Notes under the pieces: model-generated | Database searches by the model: none | What the model was told of the DNA's origin: nothing | Seen by the model: the letters and a program-made list of their open reading frames with translations, nothing else | Position numbers and translations under genes: made by a program | Origin: a virus | Lineage: Duplodnaviria > Heunggongvirae > Uroviricota > Caudoviricetes | Strand: one strand, 5' to 3' | IMG/VR virus record: IMGVR_UViG_2597490083_000007 | DNA length: 28,049 bases | Shown: positions 24,869 to 26,184 of the stretch, piece by piece | How the letters are laid out: each line of letters begins with the position of its first letter | Numbering within the stretch: position 1 is the first letter of the stretch

Positions 24869-25618
24869 ATGAATACTGTAACCATCAACAACAAACAGTT
24901 TCCGGTAATCGAATATCGCGGTCAGCGTGTTGTGACGCTGGCGATGATTGATGAAGTCCACCAGCGACCGGAAGGAACCGCGCGTGCAGCATTCAACCGA
25001 AACCGTGAGCATTTCATCAGCGGTGTGGATTATGCCGAATTAGGTGCGGACGTAATACGTACGGACCTCCCGGAAGGAACATTCTCTAAATTTGCACCAT
25101 CGGGGATTGTACTTTTTGAATCAGGTTACCTGATGTTGACGAAGCCATTCAATGACGCCCTTGCCTGGCAGGTTCAGCGCGAACTGGTTAACAGCTACTT
25201 CCGCACTCGCACACCGCTAACGGAAATCGAGATGATCGCTGCGATAGCCGCCGACGCTGTTCGTCAACAGAAGCGCCTGAATCATGTGGAAGAACAGCTC
25301 GAAACAGTCACAGAAGCGGTGGAAACCATCAAACGCGGAAATATGCGCGCCGGATATGTCGGTTACCGCCAGGTGGTAGCCAAAAGTGGAATGAGTGACA
25401 CCAAGTGTCGGAATCTGGTGAACGCATATCAAATTCCTACAGACACCCACGAATTCATGACTCCGGACGGTCTGTTGTCTCGCAGGGCTATCGTCGAGCT
25501 TGAGCCATTTATGGCGGCGTTCCACCAAATGATGTCAGAGGCTGACCCACGCGGCACACGCTGGTATCACCCGAAGATGGGGCTTTTCCAGGTGATCGGA
25601 TGGGAGGATAAAGCATGA
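24869..25618 (+). CDS. Roi/antirepressor-like protein
   Basis: Start at the ATG with GGAG 8 nt upstream; N-terminus MNTVTINNKQFPVIEYRGQRVVTLAMIDEVHQRPEGTA... has the pattern I associate with phage antirepressor/Roi N-terminal domains (from memory). The stop overlaps the next start (ATGA). Confidence 0.5.
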   Translation: MNTVTINNKQFPVIEYRGQRVVTLAMIDEVHQRPEGTARAAFNRNREHFISGVDYAELGADVIRTDLPEGTFSKFAPSGIVLFESGYLMLTKPFNDALAWQVQRELVNSYFRTRTPLTEIEMIAAIAADAVRQQKRLNHVEEQLETVTEAVETIKRGNMRAGYVGYRQVVAKSGMSDTKCRNLVNAYQIPTDTHEFMTPDGLLSRRAIVELEPFMAAFHQMMSEADPRGTRWYHPKMGLFQVIGWEDKA

Positions 25619-26184
25619 TCATCCAGTCAAAACTTATTCGCGCCGCTCTGGTGTGCGCTGCTAAAAACGACGTTCGTTATTACCTGAACGGTCTTCACAT
25701 CACGCCGAAACATATTGAGGCAACCAATGGTTCCGTGGCACTGCGCATGGCTCACGGCATCCGGACGAAGAAAAACATCATTGTCCAGTTCGAAGGGGGC
25801 GTCCCGGCCAAAGCCGAAACGACAGAGCTGATTTTTAGTAAAGAGCCGATCGCTGTTCATCGCGACCAGTTTCAGCGACGACTGTCCATTACCGGCATTA
25901 AACTGGTGGACGGTTGTTTTCCGGATTTGGATCGCATCATTCCGAAAAAGTTTGACCGCTGTACTCACCCGGTGCTCCAGGCGGGTTACCTGAGTTATCC
26001 AGAGAAGATGTTTGGTCGTGAGCGTAAATTTATTCCCGTCCAGTTACGTCCCTCCGGTGACGGGCAAGCGGTCAGAATTCAGTTTGATTCCATCATCAAC
26101 TCAATGTATGGCAATCCTGAATTTGTTGTGATGCCTTGTCGTGATCATGGCGATTTCAACGTGGCTCAGGAGCATCCGGAATGA
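25615..26184 (+). CDS. Truncated DNA polymerase III beta sliding clamp (DnaN)-like protein
   Basis: 189 aa; local matches to E. coli DnaN read by eye: DVRYYLNG (DnaN ~HQDVRYYLNGM), KLVDGCFPDLDRIIPK (DnaN KLVDGRFPDYRRVLPK) and C-terminal FVVMPCRD (DnaN YVVMPMRL). GGGAGG Shine-Dalgarno upstream; about half the size of DnaN. Confidence 0.55.
   Translation: MIIQSKLIRAALVCAAKNDVRYYLNGLHITPKHIEATNGSVALRMAHGIRTKKNIIVQFEGGVPAKAETTELIFSKEPIAVHRDQFQRRLSITGIKLVDGCFPDLDRIIPKKFDRCTHPVLQAGYLSYPEKMFGRERKFIPVQLRPSGDGQAVRIQFDSIINSMYGNPEFVVMPCRDHGDFNVAQEHPE

Follow-up and report, generated by a model that had tools for sequence, protein, structure and literature searches.

The locus described here raises the question of what a bacteriophage might do with half of a bacterial sliding clamp. 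The host beta clamp (DnaN) carries a cleft at which polymerases, the clamp-loader subunit delta, Hda, MutS/MutL, RecB and other proteins dock by means of clamp-binding motifs. The window, i.e. the whole 28,049-nt stretch of phage DNA analyzed in this study, contains a 189-aa ORF, here called mini-beta, which had been predicted from three short sequence blocks to represent the second half of DnaN in compressed form. The original prediction further held that such a protein could not form a canonical clamp protomer and might instead act as a clamp mimic, a decoy or a recruiter of clamp-binding proteins. We examined which parts of the clamp are present in mini-beta, how they are conserved in its relatives, and which role is compatible with them.

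The mini-beta coding sequence (25615-26184, 189 aa and stop; all features with coordinates in this text lie on the plus strand) runs from an ATG at 25615 to a TGA at 26182-26184. A Shine-Dalgarno sequence, GGGAGG (25602-25607), was read from the sequence 7 nt 5' of the ATG, and falls within the final codons of the upstream gene. The TGA of that gene (25616-25618) overlaps the mini-beta start as ATGA, and the mini-beta stop likewise overlaps, as ATGA, the ATG (26181) of a 40-aa ORF with one hydrophobic segment (26181-26303). Thus, the ribosome-binding site, the translational coupling on both sides and the small hydrophobic peptide downstream were found in the window sequence as originally predicted. 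Within the downstream ORF, AGGAGG (26208-26213) precedes an ATG at 26221, initiation at which would produce a peptide of 27 aa. The upstream gene (24869-25618), called Roi-like in the original prediction, proved to encode an ORF6N-domain protein, labeled 'anti-repressor' in PHROGs, with an ORF6N DNA-binding domain and a C-terminal domain (phrog_6610) that ends in RWYHPKMGLFQVIGWEDKA. Its start is likely the ATG at 24869 (249 aa), matching the annotation in other genomes. A promoter scan of positions 23700-27000 found no plus-strand sites, which fits transcription of the operon from upstream; in the window this transcription is interrupted by IS1. Insertions of IS1, IS3-family and IS110-family elements disrupt the window prophage, and its xis is cut. 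Analysis by PADLOC showed that the mini-beta gene and its neighbors match none of the known defense families.

Profile and structure searches showed that mini-beta has the DNA-clamp fold with its repeated beta-alpha-beta-beta-beta modules, so the similarity to DnaN is not a product of chance matches. The hhalign match to E. coli beta, which covered beta 136-288 only, had a probability of 98.6% (E = 5.5e-16), with an identity to host DnaN of about 29% across the aligned part, and the AF2 model of mini-beta had a pLDDT of 91.5 and a pTM of 0.87. Mini-beta is homologous to the second half of DnaN and consists of beta domain II and a remnant of domain III. The domain II equivalent (residues 1-116, corresponding to beta 132-255; 25615-25962) comprises a strand, a helix at residues 5-14 and seven further strands. 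A Pro-containing loop, EGGVPAKAE (residues 60-68; 25792-25818), identified from the AF2 model, hhalign and conservation, stands where beta domain II has its second, DNA-facing helix (~197-208). In the AF2 secondary structure, no helix is present between the strands at residues 55-59 and 69-73, and P64 in the loop is conserved in 93% of the family. The domain III remnant (residues 117-176; 25963-26142), delimited by AF2 and hhalign, has a helix at residues 123-133 (beta ~261-274), two strands (beta ~278-295) and the C-terminal strand. It is followed by a low-confidence tail (residues 177-189; 26143-26181) found only in the enterobacterial prophage clade, in which pLDDT drops to 54-78 and the family alignment columns are mostly gaps.

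In the profile alignments, no counterpart of beta domain I or of beta 296-356 was found in mini-beta. We take beta 296-356 to carry acidic dimer-interface residues, the interface presumably being formed by residues ~298-304 together with I272/L273. Without domain I and beta 296-356, mini-beta can form neither a canonical ring nor, in agreement with the original prediction, a three-domain protomer. The head-to-tail homodimer ring requires domain I of one protomer to pack against domain III of its partner, a structure that mini-beta does not have, and with 189 aa versus ~366 aa and without three clamp domains it is not a full DnaN. PF02767 was the sole DnaN Pfam domain matched (17 bits, against a cut-off of 27), the Pfam search gave no match to PF00712 or PF02768, and the TIGR00663 score of 21.2 bits was below that of the DnaN family (cut-off 137.65).

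The residues of beta that form subsites I and II of the cleft are listed in a review (PMC11139829), and we located their equivalents in mini-beta. KNDVRYYLNG (residues 17-26; 25663-25692) corresponds to the beta 148-157 loop, which includes cleft residues R152 and L155. Within it, DVRYYLNG matches E. coli beta 150-157 at every residue, and R21, Y23, L24 and G26 are each conserved in at least 94% of the family. ATNGSVA (residues 36-42; 25720-25740) corresponds to a cleft strand, beta 171-177 (ATDGHRL), with T37 and G39 conserved in at least 93%. Position 40, the equivalent of the bridging residue His175 of beta, is His in 90% of the family, Ser in the window copy, and Cys, Phe, Tyr or Arg in close relatives; the Ser in the window copy and its closest relatives could reflect either an altered specificity or a degraded cleft. 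The connector between domains II and III, VDGCFPDLDRIIPK (residues 98-111; 25906-25947), corresponds to beta 237-250 and includes cleft residues P242, R246 and V247 (beta numbering); the block KLVDGcFPDldRiiPK aligns with beta 235-250. FVVMPCR (residues 170-176; 26122-26142) corresponds to the C-terminal cleft strand, beta 359-365, with VVMPcR aligning with beta 360-365 and M173, P174 and R176 conserved in 97%, 91% and 84% of the family, respectively. All three blocks named in the original prediction are therefore present and aligned with DnaN.

Conservation was determined across 148 representatives taken from clusters built at no more than 50% identity. The residues conserved in at least 90% of them (n = 148) were D19, R21, Y23, L24, G26, T37, G39, H40, P64, P103, M173 and P174. 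Cleft residues made up 8 of the 12 most conserved positions (hypergeometric p = 1.3e-7), and the family consensus was the same as E. coli beta at 13 of the 15 aligned cleft positions versus 36 of 132 (27%) elsewhere (Fisher p = 1.1e-5), part of this signal reflecting how homology is detected, since the cleft is the best-conserved region in DnaN generally. The consensus was identical or conservative at 11 of the 12 subsite I positions, the equivalent of beta R176 being variable. In subsite II, H175, M362, P363, M364 and R365 were kept, and N320, Y323 and V344 were missing. These three residues, out of the eight of subsite II, belong to the deleted part, which leaves the cleft incomplete and may cause canonical motifs to bind weakly or differently. 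Judged by sequence conservation, the conserved core of the mini-beta family is the cleft for clamp-binding motifs.

A profile search retrieved 12,307 representatives when the E-value limit was 1e-3, and 2,692 representative clusters when it was 1e-10. The best 150 relatives were mostly 170-214 aa long and matched the profile end to end, with about a dozen shorter fragments, and some relatives were frameshifted to 119 aa. Comparison of relatives with the window copy gave dN/dS values of about 0.05-0.14 at dS 1.3-3, indicating that mini-beta is under purifying selection. The exact window protein was present on at least 1,000 contigs, and the gene matched 352 viral contigs. A tblastn search with mini-beta matched 253 phage records, and megablast of the gene against phage genomes found nothing. 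Two candidates for natural fusions were rejected: relative P0015 reads through into a coiled-coil protein encoded downstream, and the N-terminal extension of relative P0035 looks like a miscalled start.

All contexts of mini-beta that we examined were phage or prophage. On metagenomic contigs it is surrounded by phage genes, and in an intact E. coli prophage it lies between the cI-side genes and xis-int; the protein of this prophage is 100% identical to that of the window, and the flanking DNA is 95% identical. Among the E. coli genomes with mini-beta, 59 of the 60 copies were at least 95% identical, and the upstream gene was far more diverged. The neighbors vary among phage groups, as expected for a stand-alone gene: beyond the enterobacterial clade, the upstream position is taken by an unrelated gene (a Lar-like protein, a methyltransferase or a small ORF), and in Shewanella phage 1/41 the mini-beta gene stands alone. 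The family is not confined to lambdoid phages. Its carriers include lytic phages such as C1 and Skate and an intact prophage at yecE in E. coli, as in RMDEC364 or CFSAN029787. Helicase, primase or loader genes are present in the two complete genomes inspected, those of phage C1 and Vibrio phage X29, and in the intact E. coli prophage arm. No DNA polymerase annotation was found in these three (a 163-kb Morganella phage with a match was left out), which makes them reliant on the Pol III of the host and on its clamp.

The family has been recorded before. PGAP names the identical protein 'beta clamp domain-containing protein', PHROGs holds the family as phrog_3007 (E = 5.9e-65; residues 1-179 on profile positions 3-188 of 190), and short phage polIII-beta homologues, to which mini-beta belongs, were mentioned by Kazlauskas and Venclovas in 2011 (NAR 39:8291, PMC3201878). 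A literature search for a described function of mini-beta found no functional study, the 2011 mention being the only relevant item. The original prediction knew of no described function for such a protein in lambdoid phages; the family itself proved to be already on record. These sources give neither a function nor the parts of the clamp that are retained; the present analysis identified the C-terminal part as a remnant, not the whole, of domain III and the conserved core as the partner-binding cleft. The PHROGs label of phrog_3007, 'RusA-like Holliday junction resolvase', is wrong for the mini-beta family: the protein has the clamp fold, and PF05866 was unmatched at E ≤ 1. This error is now spreading to many phage genomes and is corrected by the present analysis. 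A separate true RusA gene was seen on one contig (L006), elsewhere from its mini-beta gene.

We propose, with a probability of about 0.5, that mini-beta is a minimized stand-alone derivative of beta that binds clamp-binding motifs off DNA, as a decoy or as an adaptor. It comprises domain II together with that part of domain III which walls the hydrophobic cleft. With domain I, the presumed interface stretch and one DNA-facing helix gone, mini-beta most likely does not encircle DNA and would work as a monomer or in another non-ring state. It would be produced early in lytic development from a pL-type operon and would bind the motif peptides of its ligands away from DNA. It could then behave as a competitor, pulling partners off the host clamp, or as an adaptor, passing a partner to phage DNA. 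Its ligands could plausibly include the SOS-induced polymerases II, IV and V, Hda, the mismatch-repair proteins and RecB. The finding that family conservation is strongest at the cleft supports the mimic, decoy or recruiter role suggested by the original prediction, at the level of sequence. As a tentative form of this proposal, a soluble cleft decoy may titrate the SOS polymerases, Hda, MutL/MutS or RecB and thereby free host clamps for phage replication. Such a decoy is without precedent that we found and is less exotic than a tetrameric ring. Phage lambda gains from raised host dnaN expression through the sRNA PreS (bioRxiv 10.1101/2024.10.31.621285). A Pol III-dependent phage would be harmed if the decoy titrated alpha or delta of Pol III, and the model therefore requires ligand selectivity. 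A regular-expression scan of the seven neighboring ORFs found no canonical clamp-binding motif, which speaks against the proposal.

It is doubtful that mini-beta is instead a non-ring processivity factor or tether resembling herpesvirus UL42, in which a basic face would bind duplex DNA and the cleft would hold a polymerase or another host enzyme. Clamp homologues without a clamp loader have been linked to positive charge and direct DNA binding (Kazlauskas and Venclovas, PMC3201878), and mini-beta has a pI of 9.2. However, the corresponding stretch of E. coli beta is no less basic (pI 9.4), so charge is uninformative on direct DNA binding, and in the family (median pI 8.5) 58% of the members are above pI 8 but 25% are below 6.9. 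The loss of the DNA-facing helix of domain II also argues against a tether, as does the lack of a cognate phage polymerase in the inspected genomes (phage C1, Vibrio phage X29 and the intact prophage arm). HSV-1 UL42, HCMV UL44, EBV BMRF1 and KSHV PF-8, unlike mini-beta, have two full domains and a cognate viral polymerase, and none of the searches made showed sequence similarity of mini-beta to these proteins.

The ATGA coupling favors a different reading for the enterobacterial prophages, in which mini-beta would form a two-protein module with its upstream neighbor. By binding to the C-terminal domain or tail of the ORF6N- or BRO-N-headed protein, it would be brought to specific DNA sites, and the cleft would serve a phage ligand instead of host ligands. 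The upstream ORF6N protein is a possible partner of mini-beta in the enterobacterial clade, since N-terminal swaps between ORF6N and BRO-N keep the same C-terminal domain, ending RW.HP..G.F, beside mini-beta. In complete E. coli genomes, mini-beta was counted in 60 and the two halves of the upstream gene in 66 and 70, similar counts that may merely reflect linkage in one prophage lineage. The varying upstream genes outside the clade and the solitary gene of Shewanella phage 1/41 speak against such a module. The upstream protein tail KMGLF, which resembles AMSLF, the sequence that we take to be the delta subunit motif, was considered as a clamp-binding motif and rejected. Because the homologous tails read EFGGF, a variant without the Leu/Met position, the tail was assigned a structural role instead. 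On this evidence, we regard the two-protein module as unlikely.

Mini-beta could also be a true processivity clamp of new architecture, although we consider this improbable. The C-terminal half-domains of two protomers would pair into a single complete domain, and the dimer would be a two-fold-symmetric three-domain arc. With three beta-alpha-beta-beta-beta modules per protomer, this dimer would approximate one beta protomer in size (2 x 180 versus 366 aa). A pair of dimers would then make up a closed tetrameric ring with 12 modules, both faces of which would bear docking clefts. Loading of this phage-private ring would fall to the host clamp loader, and the ring would tether Pol III to phage DNA. 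The half-domain is exactly one module, the cleft for docking of delta and alpha is retained, the inspected phages are without a polymerase of their own and reliant on host Pol III, and lambda benefits from extra clamp (bioRxiv 10.1101/2024.10.31.621285). However, mini-beta has neither domain I nor a match to beta 296-356, and of three inner helices expected, one has given way to the Pro loop. Furthermore, modules in odd number cannot tile a ring head to tail; new two-fold interfaces would be needed, and the clefts would come to lie on both faces.

The gene might also be a remnant without function, having arisen through recombinational capture of part of dnaN or being in decay within a degraded prophage. 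This would fit the broken window prophage, the lack of a promoter-like site found nearby, the change of His40 to Ser and the frameshifted relatives, but it is very improbable and largely refuted for the family: identity to host DnaN is only about 29% over the aligned part, an identical protein resides in an intact prophage with closely similar flanks, the E. coli copies are nearly uniform beside a much more diverged upstream gene, and a captured fragment or pseudogene, including the one-off recombination fragment considered in the original prediction, was rejected on the very large family with its thousands of clusters, its uniform length and a dN/dS of about 0.1.

The reading of mini-beta as a soluble module that binds clamp-binding motifs off DNA can be set beside known systems. 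E. coli beta* is reportedly a UV-induced 26-kDa internal product of dnaN comprising domains II and III, a finding ascribed to Skaliter, Paz-Elizur and Livneh in 1996, who are also said to have observed that it oligomerizes and stimulates Pol III. Beta* and mini-beta have nearly the same start (~135-140), lack domain I and keep the cleft. Beta* has a complete domain III, whereas mini-beta is short of one inner helix and about 60 domain III residues, and is an independent, diverged gene. The bacterial beta clamp (DnaN; PDB 1MMI, 2POL) is 366 aa long versus 189 aa and has domain I, the second helix of domain II and residues 296-356, all three of which are lacking in mini-beta. The bacterial dnaN gene adjoins dnaA and recF, whereas the mini-beta gene is phage-encoded and located elsewhere.

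Phage N4 gp8, which acts on delta, is a phage factor directed at the host clamp system. Gp168 of a Twort-like phage (PDB 7EVP), MuC of phage Mu (PMC12867686) and PreS of lambda share with it a common theme, the manipulation of the clamp, its loader or its supply by phages, in which the clamp cleft and its motif are the contact point, as they would be for mini-beta. Gp168, gp8, MuC and PreS bind or regulate the host clamp, whereas mini-beta imitates the docking site of the clamp and would thus act on the partners of the clamp and not on the clamp itself.

The beta-clamp cleft, an antibiotic target, is a hub at which replication, repair, mutagenesis and the control of initiation are coordinated in bacteria. 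The presence of a clamp pared to little more than this cleft across thousands of clusters implies that interference with, or borrowing of, the network of clamp partners may be widespread. If mini-beta were to form a ring, it would represent a new way of building a sliding clamp. If it is a decoy, it would provide a natural, small and probably monomeric cleft scaffold for the study of motif specificity and for inhibitor screening, and would show how phages that depend on Pol III clear competitors for the clamp, for example after SOS induction.

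The 189-aa ORF, on the plus strand of the window, opens with the ATG at 25615 and closes with the TGA at 26182–26184; we refer to its product as mini-beta. A GGGAGG in Shine-Dalgarno position (25602–25607) lies 7 nt 5' of the start codon. The TGA (25616–25618) of the upstream gene, which encodes a 249-aa ORF6N-domain protein (24869–25618, plus strand), shares an ATGA with the mini-beta start, and the mini-beta stop shares an ATGA with the ATG (26181) of a 40-aa hydrophobic ORF, indicating coupling on both sides as originally predicted. Within the 40-aa ORF (26181–26303), an internal AGGAGG (26208–26213) is followed by an ATG at 26221; a start there would yield a 27-aa single-span hydrophobic peptide, MSWPDAIVTLGMVFAVAFVVYSICRWG.

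The three short blocks reported in the original prediction to be shared with the E. coli sliding clamp (DnaN, here called beta) were confirmed and align to beta residues 150–157, 235–250 and 360–365. Single-sequence searches with mini-beta gave weak matches that all pointed to a clamp: PF02767 in Pfam (E 0.007, under the gathering score), TIGR00663 (E 1e-4, 21 bits; cut-off 138) and, by phmmer against PDB, about 30 beta clamps with E values of about 1e-3, every match placing query residues 5–116 on beta 136–255. When an alignment of 33 relatives of mini-beta was compared with E. coli DnaN by hhalign, residues 5–149 were aligned to beta 136–288 with a probability of 98.6% (E 5.5e-16). Among the predicted viral structures in BFVD, many phage proteins of 163–215 aa had the mini-beta fold (TM 0.7–0.8). 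The profile and structure searches thus showed that the likeness to DnaN is homology and not chance, and that the fold is that of a clamp.

Residues 1–116 of mini-beta are the counterpart of beta domain II, with the DNA-facing second helix (beta ~197–208) replaced by a nine-residue loop whose proline, P64, is 93% conserved in the family. Residues 98–111 correspond to the segment linking domain II to domain III. Of domain III, residues 117–176 retain only the first helix and two strands (beta ~261–295), followed directly by the last strand (beta 359–365). Domain I is wholly absent and beta 296–356 has no counterpart; mini-beta therefore has three beta-alpha-beta-beta-beta modules, the equivalent of about 1.5 clamp domains, and a canonical three-domain protomer is ruled out, as had been anticipated. 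The canonical beta dimer is closed by domain I on one side and by an acidic stretch at ~298–304 on the other. Because both regions are missing, a canonical ring is impossible for mini-beta.

We measured conservation over 148 diverse representatives of the family and related it to the cleft of beta, the pocket that docks the clamp-binding motifs of its partners. The Leu-Phe end of such a motif sits in subsite I, the source of most of the affinity. In beta, subsite I comprises R152, L155, T172, G174, H175, R176, L177, P242, R246, V247, V360 and M362, and subsite II comprises H175, N320, Y323, V344, M362, P363, M364 and R365 (PMC11139829). Twelve positions of mini-beta were at least 90% conserved (D19, R21, Y23, L24, G26, T37, G39, H40, P64, P103, M173 and P174), and eight of these 12 most conserved positions are equivalent to cleft residues (R152, L155, T172, G174, H175, P242, M362 and P363; hypergeometric p = 1.3e-7). 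Of 15 aligned cleft positions, 13 had the same residue in the family consensus and in E. coli beta, compared with 36 of 132 positions elsewhere (Fisher p = 1.1e-5). Selection in the family keeps the partner-docking cleft above all else. Judged from the alignments, subsite I appears to be essentially complete; from subsite II, N320, Y323 and V344 are gone with the deleted half-domain.

The window copy carries Ser (TCC, codon 40, 25732–25734) at the position equivalent to His175, a residue belonging to both cleft subsites in beta (PMC11139829), against 90% His in the wider family. Among loci L011–L022, L031 and L058–L064, codon 40 specified Ser, Cys or Phe in near-identical enterobacterial copies (96–100% identical), and His, Tyr or Arg in slightly more distant ones. 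Position 101 (equivalent to R240) was likewise variable (Arg, Cys, Leu, Ser or His). These two positions may vary because ligand specificity is being tuned there or because constraint is relaxed.

When 1.84 billion cluster representatives were searched with a profile, 12,307 matched at E≤1e-3, of which 2,692 reached E≤1e-10. The best 150 relatives were mostly 170–214 aa and matched the profile end to end, with about a dozen shorter fragments. By tblastn, mini-beta was found in 253 phage records, mostly of 40–50 kb phages, with hosts in Salmonella, Escherichia, Klebsiella, Vibrio, Shewanella, Acinetobacter and Burkholderia. At least 1,000 contigs carried the exact 189-aa protein. Among complete E. 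coli genomes, few had the gene, but its copies were uniform (60 of 5,426 genomes, 59 copies being at least 95% identical). Pairwise dN/dS against the window copy was 0.05–0.14 at dS 1.3–3, and ~0.2 inside a very close E. coli subclade. A pseudogene or dnaN fragment was rejected as an explanation for the family, which is large and uniform in length with dN/dS ~0.1; the thousands of clusters and the purifying dN/dS likewise removed the original reservation that the ORF might be a one-off product of dnaN recombination. Some 96%-identical copies (viral contigs L069 and L071) have a 1-nt deletion that would give a truncated product of 119 aa; a cluster of 64 proteins of that length (P0042) matches it. 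The 90%-identity cluster of the exact protein also holds 249-aa ORF6N upstream proteins, one of which is the cluster representative; this is probably a clustering artefact from read-through or fused gene calls.

Annotation pipelines already recognise the family. PGAP names the identical protein in recent E. coli annotations 'beta clamp domain-containing protein', and phrog_3007 matches mini-beta at full length (E 6e-65). The label of phrog_3007, 'RusA-like Holliday junction resolvase', is wrong: a RusA Pfam match is absent and the fold is that of a clamp. Many RefSeq annotations of phages have taken over this label (e.g. NC_054651.1, 17626–18162). As early as 2011, Kazlauskas and Venclovas mentioned short Pol III beta homologues in phages (PMC3201878). 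No functional paper on the family was found in the literature searched. Compared with the retrieved literature, three findings seem to be new: the reduction of domain III to a remnant in the C-terminal part, the great size of the family, and the identity of its conserved core with the cleft for clamp-binding motifs.

In an intact E. coli prophage (L001), the gene order was cI-type repressor, other early genes, SPFH lipoprotein, ORF6N protein, mini-beta, 40-aa ORF, DUF4222, 48-aa ORF, xis, int and the attachment site, which adjoins a DUF72-family gene at the yecN locus. The block holding mini-beta is an early-left (pL-type) operon. The window carries the same block within a degraded prophage broken up by four IS copies (IS110 family, two of the IS3 family, and IS1; 17917–18897, 21549–22705, 23219–23916 and 26881–28049). 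IS1 lies just upstream of the SPFH gene and parts the SPFH, ORF6N and mini-beta block from whichever promoter drove it. The xis gene (excisionase, DUF1233 family; 26709–26906) is interrupted by a minus-strand IS3-family element (26881–28049), which leaves the first 55 of its 78 residues, and no integrase gene was found downstream of xis within the window. Further left are IS110-family and more IS3-family copies, tail genes, a Q antiterminator and an ipaH-type E3 ligase. The latter, an IpaH-kind type III effector with LRR and NEL E3 ubiquitin ligase domains (848–2599), stands beside lambdoid tail-fibre, Lom and J genes, as is typical of prophage remnants in Shigella or enteroinvasive E. coli.

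In enterobacterial prophages, mini-beta could work with the upstream protein as a two-gene module. There, ORF6N- and BRO-N-headed upstream proteins keep the same C-terminal domain beside mini-beta with ATGA coupling, and the two genes have nearly equal genome counts in E. coli; however, the pairing is not general to other clades. A C-terminal tail, RW.HP..G.F, is common to upstream proteins with ORF6N, BRO-N or Lar-like zinc ribbon heads (L027, L024 and L092), all of them ATGA-coupled to mini-beta, and may be a partner domain or a recombination boundary spanning the ribosome-binding site. Across the same E. coli prophages, nucleotide identity was 95–100% for mini-beta, 80–95% for the C-terminal half of the upstream gene and 60–99% for its N-terminal half, divergence stepping sharply at the boundary between the two genes.

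Elsewhere, mini-beta was flanked by a ParB-like protein and a methyltransferase in phage C1, by ParB-like and Lar-like proteins in contig L009, by methyltransferase, DUF1367 and Y8K6-family genes in a marine contig, and by ASCH, Dam methylase and SSB in Vibrio phage X29; in Shewanella phage 1/41 the gene stood alone, in opposite orientation, inside the structural module. Because the neighbours differ between phages, the gene behaves as a stand-alone unit. In unrelated phages (L004, L009, L006 and L090), the neighbourhood is one of early DNA metabolism and protection and not a replisome operon. Recurrent neighbours across these loci were DNA methyltransferases, Lar-like restriction-alleviation proteins, ParB-like proteins, ASCH and SSB. 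The complete genomes of C1 and X29 and the prophage arm inspected encode helicase, primase or loader functions, and no DNA polymerase was found in them.

It is topologically conceivable that mini-beta forms a new ring, in which half-domains associate in pairs and four protomers, with 12 modules in all, complete the circle, but this architecture requires new interfaces and must tolerate the missing inner helix. A UL42-like direct DNA tether is permitted by the overall charge of mini-beta but gains no support from it, the corresponding part of beta being just as basic, and the cognate polymerase is absent from C1, X29 and the prophage arm.

Mini-beta is clamp-derived, lacks a canonical ring, is under purifying selection with the cleft conserved most and, among the contexts examined, occurs only in phages and prophages. 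We infer that it would bind clamp-binding motifs, and its likeliest role would be that of a soluble competitor or adaptor for host clamp partners in lytic growth. Candidate ligands would be the rivals of Pol III for the clamp, namely the SOS-induced polymerases II, IV and V, Hda, MutS, MutL, and RecB, whose clamp-binding motif, QVEMEF, was mapped recently (PMC13254535). The SOS-induced polymerases would be relevant because prophage induction occurs under SOS. Such a competitor would need to be selective for its ligands, because to titrate Pol III alpha or delta would work against the phage itself. Clamp availability matters to phages that lack a polymerase of their own: the lambda sRNA PreS increases translation of dnaN and favours replication of the phage DNA (bioRxiv 10.1101/2024.10.31.621285).
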